Source: a virus. Taken from it: a stretch of 64,000 nucleotides of DNA. The notes beneath the pieces were generated by a model. It had not been told where the DNA came from. It saw nothing but the letters and a program-made list of their open reading frames with translations, and searched no databases. Shown piece by piece: positions 12,128 through 62,419 of the stretch. The position numbers were made by a program, and so were the translations under genes. Position 1 is the first letter of the stretch. Each line of letters begins with the position of its first letter. Location of the stretch: IMG/VR virus record IMGVR_UViG_2921643360_000001, positions 1 to 64,000 of that record, one strand, 5' to 3'.

Positions 12128-12910
12128 TCAGGTGCTGCGATACATGCCGGATCCGCGCGGCACGATGGCGCCTACACGATGGATAGACACGATATCGGCC
12201 AGCGACCTCGTGATTGGAGGAATGCCATTGTTGATCGAACCAAGGCTGACTTCCTCATCACGGATCCACAACAATTCTTTGACGACAGCGCTGCCGTCGA
12301 CAAACTTGACCACCACATCATCACCCGGAAGAGCTTCGACGCCGGGTTCCACAACGATGTGTTCGCCACTCTTTATGCGCGGCCTCATGCTATCGCCGCG
12401 CACCTTCAAACCATAGGCCGTTGGGTCTGGTGAATGGATGTTGAGCCATCCATGGCCGTGACCTGGCGGATAGTCGTCGATACTGATAAACCCATCCGGC
12501 CCACCCTGCACTTCCCCGACCACGGCTATATCCCTCCCAGCCTTTAGTTCCAATCGCTCGCCAACGTTTGCTTCTGCTCGTGGCAGGCCTTCGATACTAG
12601 CCCCACCTTTCGGGACCGAAGGCGCAATCATGCCTGACTTTTGCCGGTTCTTCGAGATATCAGTGTCCGCTGAAATGTGGTTGCCGGTGACGCCCAAATC
12701 GAAGTAGAGAGTCGGCAAGCCAAGTTCGGACTCGAGTCGCCGCGCAGCTCCTTCGCCGAACCCGCGTCCCTCCCGATAGTTCGGGTTCAGCAGTTGTCGG
12801 ATCCGAGCCGCATCCTGGTTGTGCAGTCGAGCGAATTCAGCGGCGACCCCTCCCGCCTCCCTGTCCACTAGTTCCTGTAGCCGCTTACGGCGGTGCGCAT
12901 GTATGTCCAT
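12128..12910 (-). CDS. cI-type repressor (N-terminal HTH + C-terminal S24 LexA-like autopeptidase)
   Basis: S24 Ser/Lys dyad motifs (GDSMRPRIKSGEHIVVEP; VVKELL). Transcribed divergently from a cro-like gene. Start chosen at MDIHAHRRKRLQ (ATG 12908-12910). Confidence 0.85.
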   Translation of the reverse strand: MDIHAHRRKRLQELVDREAGGVAAEFARLHNQDAARIRQLLNPNYREGRGFGEGAARRLESELGLPTLYFDLGVTGNHISADTDISKNRQKSGMIAPSVPKGGASIEGLPRAEANVGERLELKAGRDIAVVGEVQGGPDGFISIDDYPPGHGHGWLNIHSPDPTAYGLKVRGDSMRPRIKSGEHIVVEPGVEALPGDDVVVKFVDGSAVVKELLWIRDEEVSLGSINNGIPPITRSLADIVSIHRVGAIVPRGSGMYRST

Positions 12911-12932
12911 GGCGGAATTAGAACCGAAAACT

Positions 12933-13001
12933 AGCATTTGCTGTGAAAGCAGAATTTATCATTTCAGCACGCAAATGCTTGCGTTTAGCGGAAGCATTTG
13001 C
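12933..13001. promoter_or_regulatory. operator region of the immunity switch (three copies of AGCATTTGC / GCAAATGCT)
   Basis: AGCATTTGC at 12933-12941 and 12993-13001; the inverted copy GCAAATGCT at 12971-12979. All lie in the 103-bp gap between the divergent repressor and cro starts. Confidence 0.55.
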
Positions 13002-31991: not shown

Positions 31992-32648
31992 ATGGCCCTT
32001 TGCGGAGCCAAAAACCGCAGCGGTCAGCCTTGCAAACGCCACGCAACGGTAGGAGCCAAGCGCTGCAAGTTGCACGGCGGCAACAACAAGCCGGCGAAGA
32101 AGGGTAACGCGTACGCATCCAAGCCTGGTTCGCTCTACAGCAAGTACCTAACCGACGACGAGCGCGCTATTGCCGCGTCGCTTGAACTCGGCGGCGTCGA
32201 CGAAGAGTTGCGCCTTACCCGCATCCGCCTGATGCGCGCCCTGCAGCGTGAGGCCGACAAGGGCGACACACCGGAGCTTGACGAGCAGGTTGAGCGCGAA
32301 GGCGCCGAGAACGTCACGGCCAAGAGCGAGACCAAGTACAAGGTTCGCGACTACGTGACGATGATCGACCGGCTGACGGCTCGCGTCGAGTCCCTGGAGG
32401 CGCGTCGTGCTGTCCTGCTCCAGCAGCAGACGGACATCGAACTGAAGCGCAATGCTGATCGCCGCGCCGAAGAGATGCACGACATCGAGGCGCAGGTTAA
32501 GCGTCTTGATATCCAGCGCAAACAGAAAGAAGCCGCGCTGACGAATGTCGAGATCACGAACAACATCATGCCGGTTCCGACCGCTGACAGCGTCGATAGC
32601 TGGGAGCAGGTTGCATCGGCGCAGCAAGACAAGTCGCTGGGGCGGTAA
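31992..32648 (+). CDS. terminase small subunit-like DNA-packaging protein
   Basis: N-terminal CGAKNRSGQPCKRHA...KRCKLHGG Zn-ribbon motif and a coiled-coil C-terminus. Immediately precedes TerL. Confidence 0.5.
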   Translation: MALCGAKNRSGQPCKRHATVGAKRCKLHGGNNKPAKKGNAYASKPGSLYSKYLTDDERAIAASLELGGVDEELRLTRIRLMRALQREADKGDTPELDEQVEREGAENVTAKSETKYKVRDYVTMIDRLTARVESLEARRAVLLQQQTDIELKRNADRRAEEMHDIEAQVKRLDIQRKQKEAALTNVEITNNIMPVPTADSVDSWEQVASAQQDKSLGR

Positions 32649-52060: not shown

Positions 52061-53704
52061 ATGGACCGTGTGATTACGTATGTAGGGATGAGCGTATACG
52101 AATGGCTCTTTTCTAAACAAGCGCAAAGCTCGATGGTCGGGCTCTCGAAGCTGTCGGCCGCCATGTTCGGTTCGAATACCGTGGCCAATGGTCTTTCCTG
52201 CGTACCGACCGGCCCCGCTTCGCTGCAAGTCGTCATCAACCCCGGCGAAATCTACTCGTTCGCCAACCTCGAGAACAGCGTCTGCGGAACGCTGCCGACT
52301 GATTCTCACAGCATCATGAAGCAAGGCGTCCTGCTGGATGCTTTTACGACGACTGCTGGTGCGCTTCCCGCGCCAGGCACGGCTGGACAGTCGGTGAACT
52401 ATCTCATCGAAGCCCAGTACGCAGATTCAGACGTCTCGGTCGATCCGACGACGGGCAGCGCGCCTGTCGTGCTTCAGTTCTATAACTCTTCGAATCCCGG
52501 CTCGCCTTGGAGCGGTCCTGGCGGCCTCGGCGGCACGAGCAACACGTTCCGTAAGGGCGTTGTGTCGCTCCAGATCAAGGCAGGTGCCGCGGCAACGACG
52601 GGCAGCCAGACGACGCCCTCACCTGATGCTGGCTGGACTGGGCTGTGGGTCGTGACGGTCGCCAATGGGCAGACACAGATCCTCGCGGGCAACATCACGC
52701 AATACGCAGGCGCGCCAATCCTGCCGTCGTCGATTCTTTCGTCGATCCAAAGCGGAAATATGTCGTATGCGGTCGCAACCGGGTCGGCTAACGCTCACAC
52801 GATCGCCTTGACGCCGGCTCTCACGTCGCGCGTCGACGGCATGATGATCCGCTACAAGGCTCCTGCCGCCAACACGACAGCCGTGACGCTGAACGATGGC
52901 GTCGGAACGGCCAACGTTCTCGGCGCGAACCACGCGGCACTCCAGGGCGGCGAATACATCACCAACGGTGACGCCATTGTCGTCTGGAATAGCTCGATCA
53001 GCGGCGGTTCGTACATCCTCATCGAATGCACTGGCGGCGCCCTCCAAATCCCCCCCGCCACTCAGAGCCAGCATGCTGTGCAGTTGGGGCAGGTGCAGCA
53101 GAACTATGCGTGGAATGGCGGGTTCCAGGCCGTTAGCGCAACCGGGAACTTTACAGTTCCGGCCGGCGTTTATAGATTGCGTTACCGCGTATGGGGTGGC
53201 GGTGGCGGCTCAGGCGGATGTGGGTCGACTGGCCAGACAGCAGGGGGCGCTGGCGGTGGCGGCTACTCCGAGGGAGTCGCTAGCGTAACTCCTGGTCAAA
53301 CTGTGTCATGCACTATTGGAGCAGCAGGTACCGCCGGGGGGGCAGGTGGCTCCGGTGGTACAGGCGGCACTACGTCGTTCACTGCAGGCGCTTTGACGGT
53401 TTCCGCTACCGGCGGGTCTGGAAGTTCAAACGGCATAGGGTCTGGCGGGAATGGAGCAGCCGGTGGCACCGGATCTGGTGGGCAAAACAACCTGACTGGT
53501 GCCGGCGGCTGCTCGGGTTCGGGCTCGACGGGCGGCCCTGGGGGCATGGGTGGTTCGGCCCCCCAAGGCGGTGGCGGTGGCGGTGGCGCAACTGGGACCG
53601 CCCAGTCCGGGCAGACGCCTGGCGGCGGCGCAGGAGGGCCTGGTGCGGCTGGAGCCAACCCGGGCGCCATTGGCGGAGCTGGTCGCATTGTTTTTGAATG
53701 GTGA
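52061..53704 (+). CDS. tail fibre protein with Gly-rich C-terminal domain
   Basis: 547 aa. The C-terminal 180 aa are about 60 % Gly (GGGGSGGCGSTGQTAGGAGGGG...). Confidence 0.7.
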   Translation: MDRVITYVGMSVYEWLFSKQAQSSMVGLSKLSAAMFGSNTVANGLSCVPTGPASLQVVINPGEIYSFANLENSVCGTLPTDSHSIMKQGVLLDAFTTTAGALPAPGTAGQSVNYLIEAQYADSDVSVDPTTGSAPVVLQFYNSSNPGSPWSGPGGLGGTSNTFRKGVVSLQIKAGAAATTGSQTTPSPDAGWTGLWVVTVANGQTQILAGNITQYAGAPILPSSILSSIQSGNMSYAVATGSANAHTIALTPALTSRVDGMMIRYKAPAANTTAVTLNDGVGTANVLGANHAALQGGEYITNGDAIVVWNSSISGGSYILIECTGGALQIPPATQSQHAVQLGQVQQNYAWNGGFQAVSATGNFTVPAGVYRLRYRVWGGGGGSGGCGSTGQTAGGAGGGGYSEGVASVTPGQTVSCTIGAAGTAGGAGGSGGTGGTTSFTAGALTVSATGGSGSSNGIGSGGNGAAGGTGSGGQNNLTGAGGCSGSGSTGGPGGMGGSAPQGGGGGGGATGTAQSGQTPGGGAGGPGAAGANPGAIGGAGRIVFEW

Positions 53705-53891: not shown

Positions 53892-53928
53892 AGACTGGTA
53901 ATATGCGCGTCTATAAGGAGCGCGCAGA

Positions 53929-55242
53929 ATGCTTATTTCGAAAATCGGCGGGGCGGTAAATAAGGTAGCGATGTCGGTCAAGCATCGCGTCGTCGGGCGG
54001 GCGATCTCTACGCTAGAGAAACCTCATCAGGCAGTTCCCGATGTCGCGATTCCCGATGTTCCCGAGACGGATGAGTCTGTTCTCGCTCGATCCGAGTCTA
54101 TTATTTCCCGGGCAATTTCTGCTGGCCGATCTGGCAAGCTGACCGTTGTTCCTGAGATGATCTCCGTCGCGGCCACGGAAAACTGCAATCTTAAGTGTGT
54201 TATGTGCCCAGGTCATGCGGGTATGAGCGGTCCGAAACTCTCAGTCAATGAGGCCGAAATGCTATTCGCCTCGCTCGCTGTTGAAGGCCCGCATTTTGGG
54301 TCGCCGAAGATCCTAGACATGACATCTGGTGAGCCCACGCTCAACCCCGACCTAGGGCCAATTTACGGCCGATTCAAAGAACTTTTCCCCGATTCGAAGA
54401 TTTCGATGATAAGCAACGGGACGATCCCCGTTCGCGGTCGAACCCGTGAAGCATTCGAACATGCTGACCGCATCGGTCTTTCGATGGACGGCGCGACGCA
54501 GGAGACGTATGAGCGGATCCGTCAAGGGTCGATATGGAAGAACGTCATTCGCAATGTGATGGACGTTGCTGAAATCAAGAAGTTGGGTGAGAACTGCGAG
54601 ACGTTGCAGATCATGATGGTTGTTATGGACCAGAATATCCATGAACTACCTGAAATGATCCGCCTCGCACATTCCCTTGGAATTCCGCAAGTGTTCGCGC
54701 AGGTTTCTGAGATTCGTACTACCCCCTTCAATATCGCAGGGCAGAACGTTTCGCTTACTCTCTCAAAGGAAAAACTCGCCCCTATAGTACACGAGGCGAA
54801 GCAGGAGGCTCAGCGACTCGGCTTGGATTTGACTCTTACGGCGCATCTGGAAAATTCACTCGTTCCGGATGAGCCAAAGCAACCAGCGACTGCTCAGATG
54901 ACACATGACGAGCGCGCGTTGAGTGTCGCGATTCGAACGTGTAATGTGCCGTGGATGCATGCACCGCGCATTTCGCAAAATCACGATGGGATCTACCCCA
55001 CAACGGTTTGCTGCCATATGCCGAATGTCCATGGCGCTGGCAATTTGGCACGCCGGGAGGAGTTCCGCGGGAAGTCGATCAACGAAATCTTCAACTCGCC
55101 ATACTATTGGGAAATTCGGGCTGGGTTGATGGATGGATCGCTTGCCAATGATGCATGCAAGGGTTGCCAGTATCACCAGATGACGCAGTGGACGGCCACC
55201 CAATTGCGCGAATTGGAAGAGGCCGTCGATGCATCAGTTTGA
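53929..55242 (+). CDS. radical SAM enzyme with C-terminal SPASM/twitch-like Cys cluster
   Basis: CNLKCVMC (the CxxxCxxC motif), SGEPTLNP glycine-rich SAM motif, and C-terminal CNVPW...CCHMP...CKGCQY. The first 60 nt are about 52 % GC, against higher-GC flanks. Confidence 0.85.
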   Translation: MLISKIGGAVNKVAMSVKHRVVGRAISTLEKPHQAVPDVAIPDVPETDESVLARSESIISRAISAGRSGKLTVVPEMISVAATENCNLKCVMCPGHAGMSGPKLSVNEAEMLFASLAVEGPHFGSPKILDMTSGEPTLNPDLGPIYGRFKELFPDSKISMISNGTIPVRGRTREAFEHADRIGLSMDGATQETYERIRQGSIWKNVIRNVMDVAEIKKLGENCETLQIMMVVMDQNIHELPEMIRLAHSLGIPQVFAQVSEIRTTPFNIAGQNVSLTLSKEKLAPIVHEAKQEAQRLGLDLTLTAHLENSLVPDEPKQPATAQMTHDERALSVAIRTCNVPWMHAPRISQNHDGIYPTTVCCHMPNVHGAGNLARREEFRGKSINEIFNSPYYWEIRAGLMDGSLANDACKGCQYHQMTQWTATQLRELEEAVDASV

Positions 55243-55605
55243 TTGATTCAGGGACGGGGATAACGACGGCGCCTCGCCACATTCGTTTTCGGCTAGTCCC
55301 TGCTCGTCTACAGGTCGGTCAGGAAAGCTCATAGGCGCTCGCATTCCGATCAGTGCCGTGAGTTTTCCGAAGAAGGACCGCTTGTGCGTCTCCAGTCCGA
55401 ACTCTCGTGCGCTTCGCTGGAAGTTGTCGACCTCCCCGGAGCAGAAGCAGGCGACATACCGGTAGGTCTCTCGTCGTCGATTCAGAAGGGCGAAATACGC
55501 ATAGACAGGCTGATCGAATTTCTTGATCTCTCCCACCTGTAAGCGCTCAACAAATGCTTTGTCCTGCTCCGGCATGTGCCGCGTAGTCAAAAGTATCGTC
55601 TGCAC
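55234..55605 (-). CDS. hypothetical protein
   Basis: 123 aa, convergent with the rSAM gene; AT-rich promoter-like region upstream. Confidence 0.4.
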   Translation of the reverse strand: MQTILLTTRHMPEQDKAFVERLQVGEIKKFDQPVYAYFALLNRRRETYRYVACFCSGEVDNFQRSAREFGLETHKRSFFGKLTALIGMRAPMSFPDRPVDEQGLAENECGEAPSLSPSLNQSN

Positions 55606-55706
55606 TTCGATCCTCCGTCTCTGGGTTATTTAGGATCGCGCTGAATGTTCAGGGGATTGCGTTGTTTTTCAATTCGTTACCCCTGTAACGACCGCCGATA
55701 ATACAC

Positions 55707-56504
55707 CTAAAATTTTATTTTCAGCTCCAGCGCATCGGCATCATTCCACAGTGGCGGAATTTCGCGCTTGTTGCTGTTGATGCTCATGAAGTAATGCCTG
55801 TAGCTCAAGGTGAGGCGACCGTTTCCTACGGACAGCCCAGCAACGGGCGCGACGGACCAGTAGGCATCGGAAACGCTGATGTCCTGTGCCGTCTGCGTTG
55901 GCCACGCCTTCCACCCGGCGACGTGCTCGGACCACGAGTCACGATGCACATAGGCGCCGACTTCTGCGCCGACGCGGACGCCGTAGACCCAGTAGTACGG
56001 CTCAAGCGTCAGCGCGACACCTTGTGATCGTCCTTCGCCCGTGAAATACGCCTGCGGTACGTCAACCTTACGCGTGTAAGAGTGCGACGATGGGTCGTAA
56101 TTCGCGTCATTCGGCGTGCATGAGCAGTCGGCTGCAGCGCGACCAAGATTGACGTATTCGGCGTGCCAGTCGACGCCCCATTTGCCGCGAGTGATGAGCG
56201 GACCAGTGAAGCCAGCAGAGAAAGCCGGCGGCTTGCTCGTCAGCTTTGAGCCGCCCGGAATGCCCTCCTGGTACCAGCGACCATCGGTCGTGGTGTACTT
56301 GGCCGCGCCAATGCCCAATTCGACCTGAACGTAATCGTTGATGTAATCAGCATGCGCCGACGCAGCGGCACAGCCCAAACTCATCGCAACAGCCGCCGCA
56401 CGCCACCGCGACCCAACGCGGCGATTCGTGCGTGAAGCCGTAACCTGTTGGCGCGGAACTCGGCGACCGCGTGAAGCCTGAACCACCCGATTTTGCGTGT
56501 GCAT
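55707..56504 (-). CDS. outer-membrane beta-barrel protein (Lom/Ail-like or PagL-like moron)
   Basis: Signal peptide (RWRAAAVAMSLGCAAASAHA|DY); alternating amphipathic beta-strands; C-terminus ...LELKIKF ends in Phe. The true start is uncertain. Confidence 0.6.
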   Translation of the reverse strand: MHTQNRVVQASRGRRVPRQQVTASRTNRRVGSRWRAAAVAMSLGCAAASAHADYINDYVQVELGIGAAKYTTTDGRWYQEGIPGGSKLTSKPPAFSAGFTGPLITRGKWGVDWHAEYVNLGRAAADCSCTPNDANYDPSSHSYTRKVDVPQAYFTGEGRSQGVALTLEPYYWVYGVRVGAEVGAYVHRDSWSEHVAGWKAWPTQTAQDISVSDAYWSVAPVAGLSVGNGRLTLSYRHYFMSINSNKREIPPLWNDADALELKIKF

Positions 56505-56506
56505 TT

Positions 56507-57187
56507 TTATTCTCCGAGCGCAACTGTCAAATTAGCTGCGTGATTTGCTGTCCAGACGGTTGCGAAAGCTTGCAGCGATGCTTTGCGCTCGTCATAGTCC
56601 TTGCCCAAGCCGATCATTACGGCGTTGCGCTCTTCCAGTCTTGCCAGAAGATCGAGCGCAGTCGTTGACAGGCTGTCGCGCTCAAGAGATTGAAACTTGC
56701 CTGATGCGGCCCAGTTGACCAGCCGCGCCTCATTGGAAAAATGATGCGGAGCGCATGTCTTGCCGATGGCCTCGCGGCTCAATTGCACAATCTGCGACAT
56801 GACCTTGTATGACGCTGCGGCTTCGTGGCGAAGACGTTTCTGGTCAAAGTGCGGATGCTGGCGTGTGATGAGCGCACGAATTTGCCGATCGCACCAGATA
56901 GCGAAGCGCACGTCCAGCCATCGGGCGAATCCAACCGCAAGATCGGGATGAAGCCAAGTTCCGCCGCTCTTGCCGCGCAAGGTGCGAATCCAATTACCAG
57001 ATTCTCCGGTATTTAAGGATTCATCCAAGGCAGCGATGTATTCCTGTGTGGCAGGAAGGGCGAGCCAGTCATTCGGACGCTTGCCGAATTGCGAGGCGAT
57101 GGCTGTCGCATTGAACCAACCTTCGTCAGTAAATGAGACGGCCACGCCTTGGTAGTCTGCGACGATGATTTGCTGTTTGGGGGCCAT
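56507..57187 (-). CDS. KilA-N domain protein
   Basis: N-terminal KilA-N/APSES-like segment (VSFTDEGWFNATAIASQFGKRPNDWL...GGTWLHPDLAVGFARWLD). Confidence 0.65.
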   Translation of the reverse strand: MAPKQQIIVADYQGVAVSFTDEGWFNATAIASQFGKRPNDWLALPATQEYIAALDESLNTGESGNWIRTLRGKSGGTWLHPDLAVGFARWLDVRFAIWCDRQIRALITRQHPHFDQKRLRHEAAASYKVMSQIVQLSREAIGKTCAPHHFSNEARLVNWAASGKFQSLERDSLSTTALDLLARLEERNAVMIGLGKDYDERKASLQAFATVWTANHAANLTVALGE

Positions 57188-57212
57188 TACCGCGCTCCCA
57201 TGCTGAATGATG

Positions 57213-57509
57213 CTACTGCGTGTCTTCTCCAGCGGCCTCCGACATGTCCATCGTGGCGCCGACTTTGCGCATTTCGTCGATCACGGCTTCGATATCCCGC
57301 TGCTTGAGCACGAGTTTCGCCATAGCGAAAAACAGCATTTGCGCGCTGATCTTCCTCGGCTCCTTCCCGCCCGTATATTTCCTGAATTGCTTGTCGTCCG
57401 ATACACCGAACAACTCGGCCATCTGGGAGCCGGTATATCCAAGCCGCGCCTTGAGTCGCGCTAGGTCTTCTGGGGTCGGTGCTTCGTAGCGCATTGAGGA
57501 ATCGTCCAA
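57213..57509 (-). CDS. XRE-type HTH regulator
   Basis: DLARLKARLGYTGSQMAELFGVSDDKQFRKYTGG. Confidence 0.55.
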   Translation of the reverse strand: MDDSSMRYEAPTPEDLARLKARLGYTGSQMAELFGVSDDKQFRKYTGGKEPRKISAQMLFFAMAKLVLKQRDIEAVIDEMRKVGATMDMSEAAGEDTQ

Positions 57510-57691
57510 GGCTGCGCGAAAAATCGCGAAATGTTCTTCTCATGATTCTTCCTTTCGGAGTTGTCGGGTTGCCGGATGGCCGCCCTGTGATTGGAAGTAT
57601 CAGCCCCGAAGGGGGCATTTGTCAACAACTAAATTCGACCAACCAACCTGCCCGCCACGAGCGGGCTTTCTGCTTTAACGGGGCTTACTGA

Positions 57692-57976
57692 ATGGACAAC
57701 ACGGTCCTCTACATTGGCGGCGCTGTAGCTGGCGCTATCGGCACGGTTGCCTGGTGGGCTGTTCGTGCGATGCACGCGCGCATCAACGAGAACGCTAAAG
57801 ACCTCTCCGACTACAAGCTCTACGCGGAAAAGCGTTTCGTGACATCCGACGAACTGACGAAGGCCATCGGAAATCTCGAAGGATCAATCGAGCGCCTGAT
57901 TGAATCAGTCGATACCAACGCCAAGGAAATGCGCGAGTGGTTCCGGCTGCTCCAGCAGACGAAGGCAGATAAGTAA
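57692..57976 (+). CDS. holin-like protein (single N-terminal TM + coiled coil)
   Basis: LYIGGAVAGAIGTVAWWAV transmembrane segment. Sits immediately upstream of the endolysin. Confidence 0.45.
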   Translation: MDNTVLYIGGAVAGAIGTVAWWAVRAMHARINENAKDLSDYKLYAEKRFVTSDELTKAIGNLEGSIERLIESVDTNAKEMREWFRLLQQTKADK

Positions 57977-58014
57977 CCGCTTTATCCCCTGCAACACCGC
58001 TCTAAGGTATAGCC

Positions 58015-58629
58015 ATGCAACTCACAGCACAGATTGTCGCGTCAGGGTGTGGCTCAGCGCTTCTTCGGGCGGCGCAGTGGGTCGCCCCGCTCCAATCCGC
58101 CTGCGACCGCTACCACATCGACACGCCTCTGCGCGTCGCGGCCTTCCTGTCGCAGATCGGCGTCGAGTCTGCCCGCCTCACCGCCCTCGTCGAAAACCTG
58201 AATTACTCGGCAGAGGGTTTGCTCGCAACCTTCCCGAAGTACTTCAACGCAGTGCAGGCGGCGCAGTACGAGCGACAGCCGCAGCGCATCGCGAATCACG
58301 TCTACGCGAATCGGTACGGCAATGGTGACGAGGCGAGCGGAGATGGATTTCGATTTCGCGGCAGAGCGTTGCTCCAGATAACCTTTAGAGACAACTATGC
58401 CTCATGCGGTAAGGCGATTGCGCTGCCTCTCGACTCACATCCTGAGTTGCTTGAGCAACCATGCAATGCGGCGCTCGCGGCTGGCTGGTATTGGGACTCG
58501 CGCAACCTTAACCCGCTGGCCGATGCCGGTCGATTCGAGGGCATCACGCGCGCTATCAACGGCGGGCTCGCAGCGTATTCCGAACGCCTCGCTCTCTATA
58601 GCGCTGCAAAGAAGTCACTCGGTATCTGA
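58015..58629 (+). CDS. endolysin, glycoside hydrolase family 19 (chitinase-like)
   Basis: GH19 catalytic signature GNGDEASGDGFRFRGRALLQITFRDNY. Confidence 0.85.
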   Translation: MQLTAQIVASGCGSALLRAAQWVAPLQSACDRYHIDTPLRVAAFLSQIGVESARLTALVENLNYSAEGLLATFPKYFNAVQAAQYERQPQRIANHVYANRYGNGDEASGDGFRFRGRALLQITFRDNYASCGKAIALPLDSHPELLEQPCNAALAAGWYWDSRNLNPLADAGRFEGITRAINGGLAAYSERLALYSAAKKSLGI

Positions 58630-58803
58630 TTATCCCCTCGCATCCCTCGCTAAGGGATAGCGGCCAAACGGGTAATTTCACGATAACTGCGACACGCGTA
58701 GCTCGATCGTAGTCCGAAATTTTGAGGTAAAATAGCGAGAGCGGAAAGGTACTTGCGATACCGATCCGCTCTCTAACCAAAGCCTGCTTACAAGGAGCAA
58801 ACT

Positions 58804-59472
58804 ATGGCTATCCGCAAGTATATCGCATCTGGCGAAATCCTCCATGGTTGGGTCTACGTCCGAGAGGGCGTGGATCGCGGCAGGACTCGGCACATCTTCG
58901 CAATGTGCCCCTCATGCAAAAACGAAGTCGAAGTAAATGCGACTGAGGTGCGGACTGGAAAAAAGAAAATGTGCCGTCCATGTGCCGACAAATTCAACGG
59001 GGCGAGATGCCTGGTTCATGCAGAAAAGTGGGCGACGCACAGGATGTCAGGTTCGACAACTTACGAATCATGGCGGTCTATGATGAAGCGTTGCTACTTA
59101 GAAAGTGCAACGTTCTATCAATACTACGGCGGAAAAGGGGTCAAAGTTTGCGACCGTTGGCGGGATTCGTTCGCCAATTTCTTTGCTGATATGGGAGAGC
59201 GCCCTGAAGGCATGACCTTGGACAGATACCCCGACAAGAACGGTGACTACGCGCCGGGTAACTGCAGATGGGCAACGCCAACGGAACAGATTCGCAACAG
59301 AAATACCACGGTGTATATTGAGTTCCGGGGGTTGCGCAAAACGATGAAGGAATGGGCGGATGAAATTGGTGTCGCCTACAAGACATTACGCGCAAGGATA
59401 GTTGACCAAGGATGGCCAATAGACCGCGCACTTACTACGCCGCTGCGGATCCACAGAAAGCACGTCCCATAA
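58804..59472 (+). CDS. HNH-like homing-endonuclease-like protein, paralogue 3
   Basis: CPSCK...CRPC ribbon; YGGKGVKVCDRW...ADMGERPEGMTLDRYPDKNGDYAPGNCRWATPTEQIRNR. Same 5' and 3' flanks as paralogue 2. Confidence 0.55.
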   Translation: MAIRKYIASGEILHGWVYVREGVDRGRTRHIFAMCPSCKNEVEVNATEVRTGKKKMCRPCADKFNGARCLVHAEKWATHRMSGSTTYESWRSMMKRCYLESATFYQYYGGKGVKVCDRWRDSFANFFADMGERPEGMTLDRYPDKNGDYAPGNCRWATPTEQIRNRNTTVYIEFRGLRKTMKEWADEIGVAYKTLRARIVDQGWPIDRALTTPLRIHRKHVP

Positions 59473-60682: not shown

Positions 60683-62419
60683 ATGGGCGCGCCAGACCTC
60701 TCAAACTGGATCTGGCCGGACGCGGATCTACAGCGCCAGCCTCAGGGCGTGGTCACGGTCAACCCTCAGGTTTTCCCCAGCGCGGTACGCTGCTTTGTCG
60801 GTGGCCGCGATGTGTTGACGAACATCAACCTGGCGCTCCCGCTCATCCAGACGCCAGCCGGAACGGGATATACAAACACCAGCAACTCGGCCGCCGCCAA
60901 GCAACTGTCGAGCACTCTAGCCACTTCGTCCGGCGCGGGCGCAGGTGATTTCACGATCATCTGTGTACACAATCTGGCGGCAAGCGGGTCTCAGAATTCG
61001 GTCGCCTGGGCGATTGACGCTAACAAGGCCGCCCCTGGCTTCTATGTCCAGATGAACGCCGACACGTCGGGTGCCTTGGCATCTGGCGATATGACGTTTG
61101 GGGACTTTAATAACGCGGGGATCGCGCTGACCGGGGCGGTTGACGGCAAAAGTCACGCAGTCATTTTCACGCGGCGCGGCACGACGCTCTATGCCTTCAT
61201 GGATGGGGCGCTGAAGTCTACGCTCGCCTCCTACACTTATGCCCTGCCCGCGTCGGGCAATGCGGAGTGGGTGGGAGGGTCAGGGTGGGCTAACACCGGC
61301 GTCGTCGGGGGTGGCGTCCCGCTTATCGCGGTGTCCAACCGGGGGTTGACGATTGCCGAGGGCGTGGCGCTCTCTGCTAACCCCTGGCAGATTTTCAAGC
61401 CGGCGACGATGGCGCTGTATATGCCAGCGGCTGCGGGCGGCGTGACGGTTGGGCTGTCTCAGGTAGCGGGTGCGGGTAGTGTCGGTGCTGTCGGCATCGC
61501 AACGGGGCTCTCGGCAACGGGCGTATCTGCGACTGGTGCGACGGGTTCTGCCGGATATGGCGAAGGTTATGCGATCACTGGTGCGGCGGCCACTGGCAGC
61601 ACGGGTATTGCTACGCCCGCCTCGTCTCCAGTTCTGGCAGGTGCCAGTGCGACAGGCTCGATGGGCACCGCTGCGCCTTCGATCACCGCAGCGCTGACCG
61701 GCGTATCGGGTGCATCGTCTGTCGGTAGCGTAACCCCCGGCACTTCGGCGGCCCTGACGCAAGTCGCCGCAACGGGATCGACGGGCTCGGTAAGTGAGGG
61801 TATTTCACTGGCCCTGTCTGGCGTCGCGGGAACGGGATATGTCGGCACCGTCTCATCTGGCGGCAACATCACGCAGGCGCTGTCCGGGGCCCCTGCTACT
61901 GGCGCTGTCGGCTCCGTATCCCCTTCCCTGTCGCTGGTTAGTTCTGGCGTCTCGGCAACGGGCAGCACGGGCTCTCTCGCTCCGACTCGCGCGCTATCCG
62001 GCGTATCTGGAGCCAGCACGACTGGCGCCGTCACGCAGTCGATATCGCCTACCCTCGTCGGCTCAAGCGCAGCCGGGTCAACAGGCGCTATCTCTGCGGG
62101 CGCGGACAAGAATGCAGCTCTGACTGGTGCTGCGGCAACGTCTTCCGTTGGCAGTGTTGGCACGAACGTCTCGATCGGTCTGGCTGGCATTTCCGCGACG
62201 GCATCGACCGGCGTTCTCGCGTCGAGCCTGACTTATGGACTGGTTGGAAATGCGTCGGCAACAAGCGTTGGATCGATTCTGGCCGTCACTCCAAAATCCA
62301 TCGCGGCCCCGCCTGTCACGTTCCCGATCTACCGAGAGCGGCGCGTGTTCAGCATTCCATCTGAAAGTCGCATATCGCCCGTTCCTGCCGAGAGGCGAAT
62401 CATCAAAGTCGCAGCCTAG
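60683..62419 (+). CDS. tandem-repeat fibre-like protein with N-terminal lectin/LamG-like region
   Basis: 578 aa. From about aa 240 there are roughly 17 degenerate ~20-aa repeats of the form L-x-G-x-S-A-T-G-S-x-G-S... A terminator follows. Confidence 0.5.
   Translation: MGAPDLSNWIWPDADLQRQPQGVVTVNPQVFPSAVRCFVGGRDVLTNINLALPLIQTPAGTGYTNTSNSAAAKQLSSTLATSSGAGAGDFTIICVHNLAASGSQNSVAWAIDANKAAPGFYVQMNADTSGALASGDMTFGDFNNAGIALTGAVDGKSHAVIFTRRGTTLYAFMDGALKSTLASYTYALPASGNAEWVGGSGWANTGVVGGGVPLIAVSNRGLTIAEGVALSANPWQIFKPATMALYMPAAAGGVTVGLSQVAGAGSVGAVGIATGLSATGVSATGATGSAGYGEGYAITGAAATGSTGIATPASSPVLAGASATGSMGTAAPSITAALTGVSGASSVGSVTPGTSAALTQVAATGSTGSVSEGISLALSGVAGTGYVGTVSSGGNITQALSGAPATGAVGSVSPSLSLVSSGVSATGSTGSLAPTRALSGVSGASTTGAVTQSISPTLVGSSAAGSTGAISAGADKNAALTGAAATSSVGSVGTNVSIGLAGISATASTGVLASSLTYGLVGNASATSVGSILAVTPKSIAAPPVTFPIYRERRVFSIPSESRISPVPAERRIIKVAA

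Follow-up and report, generated by a model that had tools for sequence, protein, structure and literature searches.

Phage morons, among which are lom and bor of phage lambda, are independent transcription units placed in late regions (PMC3594210). AT3 and SGNH enzymes are classic modifiers of surface polysaccharides, and phage lysogenic-conversion genes are among those that encode them (PMC9558356, PMC9833829), while BstA is a known KilA-N-like prophage protein of abortive-infection defence (PMC8585504). We consider here, with these systems in mind, four genes of a stretch of viral DNA of 64,000 nucleotides (positions 1 to 64,000 of the IMG/VR record IMGVR_UViG_2921643360_000001; 'the window' in what follows), which is a temperate myovirus prophage of Paraburkholderia steynii. 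Located at 55234-57509 on the minus strand, they encode, in the order in which they would be transcribed, a small helix-turn-helix (HTH) protein, a KilA-N protein, an outer-membrane protein (OMP) and an orphan cytoplasmic protein, ORF123. The locus is probably a variable moron slot of temperate Paraburkholderia myoviruses, in which a conserved expression platform, crossed by a second reading frame, is followed by cargo genes for envelope or KilA-N proteins.

A preliminary description, made from the letters alone, had noticed four open reading frames (ORFs) running opposite to the late genes around them. The ORF listing agrees: they occupy 55234-55605 (123 residues), 55707-56504 (265), 56507-57187 (226) and 57213-57509 (98), and their neighbours are on the plus strand. 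All four are real genes. The same description took them for a moron-type cluster between tail-fibre and lysis genes, and this view holds as well: the cluster has what looks like a sigma-70 promoter of its own, and the content of the slot varies between related phages, both of which are marks of a moron.

The regulator and its putative promoter

Contigs found through homologues of the OMP and of the HTH protein were read first, and a conserved DNA motif then served to retrieve 27 stretches from collections of viral and metagenomic sequences (loci are cited by number below, L001 and so on); a scan of GTDB genomes gave a single locus, which was already among those found. Ahead of the four genes, the minus strand of the window carries a sigma-70-like promoter at 57596..57625. 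It consists of TTGACA (57625-57620) and GATACT (57601-57596) separated by an 18-nucleotide spacer, a match at 10 of 12 positions, and it is the only good promoter match; no plus-strand promoter-like site is found in the intergenic region. Within the spacer lies a palindrome, GCCCC-CTTC-GGGGC (57616-57603, minus strand), the presumed operator of the HTH protein. This layout is common to 27 related loci, all with a perfect palindrome in the spacer, and across them three types of palindrome track three HTH subfamilies without exception. GCCCC..GGGGC goes with the subfamily of the window (proteins starting with MRYEAP or MRYKAP), ATCACCC-TAG-GGGTGAT with the MHY type and TAGGCGGA-W-TCCGCCTA with the MLF type. 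A palindrome that sits between the -35 and -10 elements and co-varies with the adjacent HTH protein fits what an autorepressor and its operator should look like, and position and co-variation together suggest that the protein binds there. Since a repeat search, at its settings, returned no inverted repeat in 57480-57700, the palindromes were picked out on the sequence itself and then scored with a script. Because neither an internal promoter nor an internal terminator was detected within the cluster, a single operon starting from 57625 is the most economical model; no intrinsic terminator was detected at its 3′ end either. As for the AT-rich upstream regions of the preliminary description, one is clearly, if moderately, so (55606-55706, GC content 0.475, against 0.583 for the whole window), while 57510-57690, at 0.541, barely deserves the name.

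The first gene of the operon is listed from a TTG at 57509. Its product most likely starts at ATG 57494 instead, which is the start in all 20 aligned homologues, and then comprises 93 residues (57213..57494, minus strand). It has 22 homologues, one of which NCBI names an XRE family regulator, and in its frame amino acids are conserved while third positions diverge. The protein matches phrog_20491 (E 3.3e-27), phrog_14076, labelled 'transcriptional regulator' (E 2.9e-4), and, weakly, the HTH region of MqsA (E 0.0017); there is no match to a Pfam HTH family, and sequence and family profile gave only marginal or unrelated matches against PDB. The XRE-type proteins retrieved by Foldseek with its predicted structure include HigA2, C.Esp1396I, MqsA, CapH and Aca1. 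These signs are weak but consistent, and the protein is probably an XRE-type HTH, presumed to be the autoregulator of the cassette promoter.

A second frame across the regulator gene

In the related loci, a strong ribosome-binding site (GAAAGGAA) and an ATG precede the HTH start by 31-49 nucleotides, in another frame. The site of the window is GAAAGGAAG, at 57556-57548, and its ATG, at 57543-57541, opens a frame of 118 codons (57187..57543, minus strand) that covers the whole HTH gene. Over the entire HTH gene this upstream frame is free of stops in 25 of 25 distinct loci. When the synonymous codons of 18 genes were resampled, the probability of finding the frame open was 0.011-0.105 per gene; permuting synonymous codons within each of 25 genes gave 0.010-0.345, with a mean of 0.075. 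Multiplied together, these probabilities give 1.9e-4 when each of the three subfamilies has one representative, and 6.6e-13 with ten diverged representatives. The remaining third frame is closed in 17 of 18 genes.

In 22 of the 25 loci the frame runs into 'G.RWRAAAVAM...', with a lipobox or an AxA site behind it and, further on, lipoprotein or OMP cargo, and it stays in phase with the signal peptide though the length of the HTH protein varies between 92 and 104 residues. The same DNA encodes the acidic end of the HTH protein (DGEQQP, then the stop) and, in the other frame, RWRAAAV. In 15 of 17 loci, the 45 codons nearest the hydrophobic core contain no ATG, GTG or TTG in frame. L011, which lay outside the motif selection, has the same layout, and there an independent gene caller proposed a fused ORF of 390 residues. 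The extension ahead of the signal peptide is about 107 residues long and rich in arginine (14-22%). Divergence at four-fold sites of the HTH gene reaches 0.5-0.7 among members of a subfamily, and synonymous sites are near saturation between subfamilies, so that the extension is free in sequence and only its openness is selected. Both overlapping frames are maintained by selection, and the cargo is most likely translated from the upstream ATG, with the arginine-rich extension before its signal peptide.

The window carries a truncated form of this arrangement. Its frame ends with '...GGRWRRHAVASFSMGAR', followed by the stop, a degenerate copy of the 'G.RWRAAAVAM' signal peptide of related loci. 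The stop, TAA (57189-57187), overlaps the ATG of the KilA-N gene as TAATG (57189-57185), and in L035, L037 and L038 the frame likewise ends exactly on this ATG. A CGCG...CGCG dyad is also seen at 57515-57528, 10-15 nucleotides after the upstream ATG, where it is flagged as terminator-like on the plus strand; L001, L002 and L007 have a dyad of different sequence at the equivalent place. Possibly it forms a hairpin in the RNA that influences initiation, or serves as a second site for a protein.

We incline, with some caution, to see here a dual-coding platform for expression and export. The cargo would be made from the upstream ATG, with a pre-signal extension of about 107 arginine-rich residues read out of frame across the regulator, and one and the same short stretch of DNA would serve as promoter, operator, repressor gene, translation start and export signal for any cargo that comes to lie, by recombination, behind the signal peptide. 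The lineage of the window would keep a coupling ORF of 118 codons that hands ribosomes over to the KilA-N gene, while long arginine-rich leaders, including the 33-residue one of the OMP described below, may have a function of their own. It might be argued instead that the long frame is not translated as such, that the cargo starts at an unrecognised internal or non-canonical codon near the signal peptide, and that openness is a by-product of composition or of an RNA or DNA element. Frames starting at codon position 3 of GC-rich genes are indeed poor in stops, the probability of an open frame reaches 0.26-0.35 for two genes in the conservative test (that with permuted codons), and the amino-acid sequence of the extension is not conserved. 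The motif surrounding the ATG may instead work as a site of the other, late strand, and NCBI and some gene callers annotate short forms of the cargo. We nevertheless find this unlikely: the mean expectation of 0.075 is to be set against an open frame in every locus, the phase with the signal peptide is kept in spite of the varying length of the regulator, canonical starts near the core are nearly always missing, a start at Met41 of the OMP would leave a leader of 12 residues without its N-region, in all four loci with KilA-N the stop of the frame falls exactly on the following ATG, and Rfam finds nothing at E<=1 over 55000-58100.

Cargo of the slot

In related phages the slot consists of the HTH gene followed by variable cargo. 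It lies between tail and lysis genes, and is nearly always divergent from the lysis cassette, with the holin start some 140-240 nucleotides away. The cargo is an SGNH/GDSL lipoprotein, an OMP and an AT3 acyltransferase in L001; a GDSL protein, an OMP and a methyltransferase in L002 and L011; an OMP and an AT3 protein in L007 and L026; a GDSL and an AT3 protein in L020, L023 and L032; other lipoproteins in L031 and L033; and, in further types, an OMP alone or a GDSL protein alone. The window, L035 and L037/L038 have a KilA-N protein followed by an OMP. Of 25 loci, 22 have a gene for an SGNH lipoprotein or an OMP behind the HTH gene, and only one sub-lineage has a KilA-N gene there; serving any cargo, the HTH protein would therefore be the regulator of the cassette and not a dedicated partner of KilA-N. 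The HTH proteins of L024 and L026 are 100% identical and are followed by different OMP subtypes, and in three KilA-N loci one and the same leader, MHTQNRVVQ, is joined to three subtypes of OMP; the boundary of the signal peptide is thus where cargo is exchanged.

The first cargo position of the window is taken by the KilA-N gene (56507..57187, minus strand; 226 residues). The N-terminal domain named in the preliminary description is indeed there, with a match to PF04383 over residues 11-107 (E 3e-21, 75.7 bits for a cut-off of 23.8) and 47% identity to gp73 of HK97 over residues 6-120. Among PHROGs the protein matches phrog_1136, phrog_129 and phrog_2657, the last of these corresponding to its C-terminal part; a PDB sequence search gave no match. 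Its last residues, ALGE before the stop, are those of the lipase C-terminus in L001 and L011, and homology to the DNA of L001 resumes 21 nucleotides before the ATG of the OMP gene, which itself starts 2 nucleotides after the KilA-N stop. The KilA-N gene has therefore replaced the first secreted cargo. Gene order around it is the same in L035, L037 and L038. The protein may be a cytoplasmic DNA-binding cargo, a candidate accessory for defence or regulation. At 1643-3223 of L016, the gene of a protein with an ORF6N domain, a family related to KilA-N/Bro-N, comes just before those of an OMP with the leader and of an AT3 protein; DNA-binding cargo ahead of an OMP may have arisen more than once.

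Could defence be the main function of the cluster, with the KilA-N protein acting in abortive infection as BstA does, downstream of a repressor-like gene? The C-terminal part of the protein does match PDC-S22 of PADLOC (E 1.5e-10), but PDC-S22 is a candidate system only. The BstA model of PADLOC, which scores BstA of BTP1 at 1.9e-124 as a positive control, has no match to the window protein, and BLASTP against BstA gives an E-value of 0.14. We rejected the identification with BstA, and consider defence as the main function to be quite unlikely.

The second cargo of the window is the OMP, made of a leader of 52 residues (56349..56504, minus strand) and of a mature barrel (55707..56348, minus strand). 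The signal peptide, beta-strands and terminal phenylalanine of the preliminary description are all recovered: cleavage is predicted after residue 52, between AHA and DY, the AlphaFold model (pLDDT 81.6) has eight long strands, and the last residue is Phe. A signal peptide, amphipathic strands, a C-terminal aromatic residue and a barrel fold are together the marks of the outer-membrane beta-barrel superfamily (Pfam clan MBB), and the model allows us to propose with confidence an eight-stranded barrel with long extracellular strand extensions, predicted to be exported and inserted in the outer membrane. The protein has 72 homologues, and an exhaustive profile search expands its family to 586 cluster representatives at E<=1e-3 (342 at E<=1e-10).

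Calling this protein Lom/Ail-like, as was first done, is justified by fold class only. Eight strands extended on the extracellular side are a feature of the Ail/Lom class, but by sequence the protein is not of the Ail/Lom family: it has no match in Pfam (E<=0.1), PHROGs, NCBIfam or PADLOC, and its family profile, run against all PDB sequences, found no OMP or solved structure. The proposed assignment by hidden Markov model to Ail_Lom (PF06316), OmpW or PagL (PF09411) fails both for the window protein and for each of 51 diverse members of the family. PF13505 (OMP_b-brl) is weakly matched by 2 of the 51 (best E 8.4e-5) and PF13568 by one. Values tabulated for the OMP against solved barrels are 15.8 for Legionella porin III, 15.7 for NspA, 15.6 for PagL, 13.8 for OmpA, 13.7 for OprF and 13.6 for OmpW, and no Ail, OmpX or Lom chain is among its best 60 matches. 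The best viral match is the FoX1 homologue, and the matches in BFVD are annotated as OMP beta-barrels. The family is thus an uncurated one. Only Gly121, Gly183 and Gly223 are invariant over the 51 members, and Gly66, Trp77 and Gly158 nearly so. An enzyme like PagL is therefore unlikely, glycines and one tryptophan being all that is (nearly) invariant; an activity of the PagL, PagP or OMPLA type (as a lipid A enzyme of the PagL kind would have) was rejected, since catalytic residues (His or Ser with an acid or Asn) are not conserved across the 51. By the alternation of residues along the strands of the model, charged residues conserved among close relatives would point into the lumen of the barrel. 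Loop 1 has a conserved DGRWYQ motif. Cys127 and Cys129 (about 56118-56126) form a CxC at the top of strand 3, invariant among close relatives; distant members have instead two cysteines in extracellular loop 2, which suggests a surface disulfide.

The leader is a story apart. It consists of an arginine-rich N-region of 33 residues (MHTQNRVVQASRGRR...), a hydrophobic core, AAAVAMSLGCAAAS, and the cleavage site, AHA before D, and it is about 80% conserved where barrels share only 33-45% identity. A leader 77% identical to it, 'MHTQNRVVQ...RWRAAAVAM', is found on a GDSL lipoprotein (P0072, at 898-1752 of L015), where it is followed by an LSAC lipobox and then an AT3 gene. Being common to OMPs and to a GDSL lipoprotein, the leader is therefore a portable module and not a part of the barrel family. 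An origin as a duplicated 3′ end of the HTH gene, read in another frame, was rejected: the similarity in DNA is a 14-nucleotide match, in the region of the signal-peptide core. The only starts upstream of the core are ATG 56504 and a GTG at codon 7. For several members of the family (P0001, P0027, P0059, P0061 and P0069), NCBI and other gene callers have chosen starts of the Met41 type (56382-56384 in the window, 'MSLGCAAASAHA'). Such a start would leave 12 residues of leader without a charged N-region, while ATG 56504 adds 40 residues; the Met41 start is probably a mis-annotation, and ATG 56504 the true one.

The family extends well beyond the slot. It is seen in the early or replication region of lytic Xanthomonas Foxunavirus phages; in Xanthomonas phage M29 (L005, 4995-5684) the gene is annotated 'outer membrane protein A', and in Ralstonia phage PQ43W (L004, 4941-5618) it is inside the tail/baseplate module, on the same strand. 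The family is therefore not restricted to settings of lysogenic conversion. In L009 the OMP gene lies directly behind a CI-like HTH_3 gene, the stop of which it overlaps. Occurrence outside a prophage, held by the preliminary description to speak against a moron cluster, concerns a single OMP homologue (L006, 6001-6705, on the P. terrae chromosome CM138824.1). This protein, 72% identical to that of the window, has an ordinary short signal peptide; its gene adjoins a divergent AT3 acyltransferase gene and has neighbours of housekeeping appearance (GST, pyridine nucleotide-disulfide oxidoreductase, PhyH and GARS). The nearest 6 kb contain no phage genes, and this part of the chromosome is apparently not a prophage.

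The last gene, ORF123 (55234..55605, minus strand, GTG start), follows the OMP gene after a spacer of 101 nucleotides (55606..55706, minus strand), in which no promoter-like or terminator-like site was found. A GGAGG is present about 7 nucleotides before the GTG, and the 3′ end of the gene overlaps the convergent radical-SAM gene by 9 nucleotides. The protein has no family match in Pfam, PHROGs, NCBIfam or PADLOC and none in a PDB sequence search, and a single relative was found among 5.8 billion clusters: P0096, 69% identical, encoded directly after an OMP homologue in L017/L018. We rejected the idea of a spurious ORF, for the differences between the two are distributed as 26/25/72 over the three codon positions, which implies purifying selection on a real gene. 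The pair in L017 (1675-4260; OMP 73% and ORF123 69% identical to those of the window) is directly downstream of an integrase gene and convergent with tail-fibre-like genes, without HTH platform or KilA-N, and the DNA of the spacer is conserved there. The two genes therefore travel together: ORF123 goes with this subtype of OMP. In P. steynii, BZM27_06130 is 100% identical to the OMP and BZM27_06125 to ORF123.

The slot as a whole and its place among known systems

Put together, these observations suggest how the slot might work. Host RNA polymerase could use the sigma-70-type promoter in the lysogen, and the XRE-like protein of 93 residues would bind the palindrome and repress its own operon, in a way resembling the controllers of restriction-modification systems or the Aca proteins. 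The strong ribosome-binding site and the upstream ATG would open the frame across the entire HTH gene, and comparison of the loci suggests that in most relatives translation from this ATG would continue into signal peptide and secreted cargo. In the lineage of the window, where a KilA-N gene seems to have taken the place of the first secreted cargo, the leftover frame of 118 codons ends as TAATG on the KilA-N start, and the ribosomes that terminate there would probably feed KilA-N translation. Upstream ORF, KilA-N and OMP would form a translationally coupled chain, with the HTH protein as a low-level side product. The OMP, finally, would remodel or mask the surface of the lysogen, with exclusion of other phages as the outcome. 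Envelope remodelling or phage exclusion, expressed in the lysogen, is the most likely role, favoured because the other cargo of the slot modifies the envelope and because lytic phages carry the OMP family.

Several points weigh against this reading of the slot and its platform. Promoter and operator, coupling and a start of translation at the upstream ATG are alike deduced from sequence. That ATG was part of the DNA pattern by which the loci were gathered, and is thus present by construction. Conservation of amino acids in the second frame was looked for and not found, at synonymous sites that are near saturation, and a pre-signal extension of about 107 residues is unusual for a Sec substrate. 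The model of the HTH protein, with five helices, has a low pLDDT of 60, and the XRE-type proteins that dominate its top 50 Foldseek matches all have E>=0.078, which is not significant. The OMP occurs with and without AT3 or GDSL neighbours, and once, in L006, outside any obvious prophage. Finally, the platform is almost always next to a holin gene, which leaves room for a role in the control of lysis.

This last role would have the HTH protein, perhaps together with KilA-N, control the divergent holin and endolysin cassette or late transcription, the secreted genes being mere passengers. The platform indeed keeps its distance of some 140-240 nucleotides from the divergent holin start in most loci with upstream sequence, through several holin families and two types of endolysin, the palindrome is within the shared intergenic region, and a hairpin with a T-run before the holin ATG hints at regulated read-through. 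Yet the place of the palindrome, right within the spacer of the minus-strand promoter, is the classic one for an autorepressor, the intergenic region has no promoter-like site on the plus strand, and in six loci (L020, L022, L024, L028, L031 and L033) the lysis genes are 0.9-1.7 kb away. We regard control of lysis as distinctly improbable. The hairpin itself, GC-rich and on the late (plus) strand at 57650-57676, ends some 15-25 nucleotides before the holin ATG at 57692. It is found at the same position in L001, L002, L007, L011, L035, L037 and most IMG/VR loci, conserved across different holin and endolysin families, which suggests a terminator that needs read-through, or an insulator between cassette and lysis genes.

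That HTH and KilA-N proteins make a second immunity or antirepressor switch, as first proposed, with the OMP as a Lom/Ail-type virulence factor for serum resistance or adhesion, is highly doubtful: KilA-N domains do occur in antirepressor-like and regulatory phage proteins, the PHROG families matched are labelled 'transcriptional regulator', the HTH gene precedes KilA-N in four loci and the OMP shares the eight-stranded fold class of Ail and Lom, but in 22 of 25 loci the same HTH family and operator would serve secreted cargo of unrelated kinds, so that the pairing is not specific, the window has a separate CI/S24-type repressor (12128-12937), the OMP has neither a Pfam match at E<=0.1 nor similarity to solved OMPs, and the relatives found belong to genomes of Paraburkholderia or Caballeronia and to assemblies of metagenomes or viral contigs, with no link to an animal host in any of them. 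For this last reason serum resistance is unlikely; receptor masking or exclusion by the OMP, which the preliminary description also considered, is plausible.

The setting of the slot is that of a temperate phage. The window includes an integrase gene (481-1554) as well as helicase, terminase, portal, sheath and baseplate genes. On the plus strand, the slot is preceded by genes for a Gly-rich tail-fibre protein (52061-53704) and, directly after it, a radical-SAM/SPASM enzyme (53929-55242), and followed by a holin-like gene (57692-57976), a GH19 endolysin gene (58015-58629) and an HNH endonuclease gene (58804-59472). The latter is distant from the terminase gene, at 32648, and a further plus-strand ORF of 578 residues (60683-62419) has no PHROG match. 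The radical-SAM enzyme has a Cys-rich, SPASM/twitch-like C-terminus; its best matches, far below cut-off at E 3e-20, are peptide or metalloenzyme maturases, and weaker ones are prokaryotic viperins (pVip of PADLOC, E 6e-12). Among 50,697 phage records, megablast found no match to 53900-58700.

The OMP family, which is phage-borne and counts hundreds of cluster representatives, has no curated model; it deserves a name, and lends itself to study as a candidate for receptor masking or exclusion in phages of Burkholderiales. The design proposed here is compact, an autoregulator embedded in the leader of the genes that it would control, with cargo exchanged at the signal-peptide boundary; it would explain recurrent mis-annotated starts, such as that of the OMP from Met41 in P. 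steynii, and may provide a natural 'plug-in' module for the expression of secreted proteins in Paraburkholderia. Should translation of the second frame be confirmed, phages would gain a further clear example, with statistical support, of genes that overlap on one strand. The slot is also a hotspot where new exclusion and defence genes may be sought. In the literature searched we found no description of this arrangement of embedded regulator, open outer frame and exchangeable cargo, which we now compare with its closest counterparts.

Taken singly, the cargo proteins differ from their described counterparts. Compared with the solved eight-stranded barrels NspA (1p4t), OmpA (3nb3), OprF (4rlc), OmpW (2f1t), PagL (2erv) and Legionella porin III (9nh2), the OMP is only 7-13% identical, and it differs by its conserved loop-1 motif, its long arginine-rich leader and the lack of catalytic residues conserved across the family. 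The KilA-N protein, with 226 residues against 307 for BstA, has no detectable homology to the latter. Phage O-antigen acetyltransferases of the AT3 kind and AT3-SGNH proteins such as OafA (PMC9558356, PMC9833829) have their likeness in the AT3 genes and distinct SGNH genes that occupy this slot in related loci, classic functions of lysogenic conversion; the window has neither gene, and the link to its OMP is by co-location only. As to the regulator, it resembles C proteins, Aca proteins and the antitoxins HigA and MqsA in being an HTH-like protein of about 90 residues and five predicted helices, first in its operon, with a palindrome at its own promoter. It differs from them in having no significant sequence or fold score, in being overlapped by another frame, and in that its binding is putative.

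As regards the overlap, the embedded spanin genes Rz/Rz1 of lambda, reportedly treated by Summer et al. in 2007, are the likeness that comes to mind: there too a phage has one gene wholly inside another, in a different frame of the same strand. Here, by contrast, it is a regulator that is embedded, in the 5′ extension of the ORF of a secreted protein, the outer product is putative, and the outer frame is unconstrained in sequence apart from the avoidance of stops. With lambda lom and bor the unit of the window has in common its place among late genes, on the opposite strand and with a promoter that seems its own, as well as an eight-stranded outer-membrane barrel presumably made in the lysogen; it differs by an OMP that is not of the Ail/Lom family, a presumed dedicated autoregulator, a shared portable leader and exchangeable cargo. 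Finally, Rousset et al. are said to have described in 2022 variable hotspots of accessory and defence genes in P2-like phages and P4 satellites. Like these, the slot is a fixed genomic place that holds different cargo genes in related temperate phages. Unlike them, it mostly holds secreted envelope proteins (SGNH lipoproteins, OMPs, AT3 proteins, methyltransferases), and would bring along its own promoter, operator, regulator and export leader.

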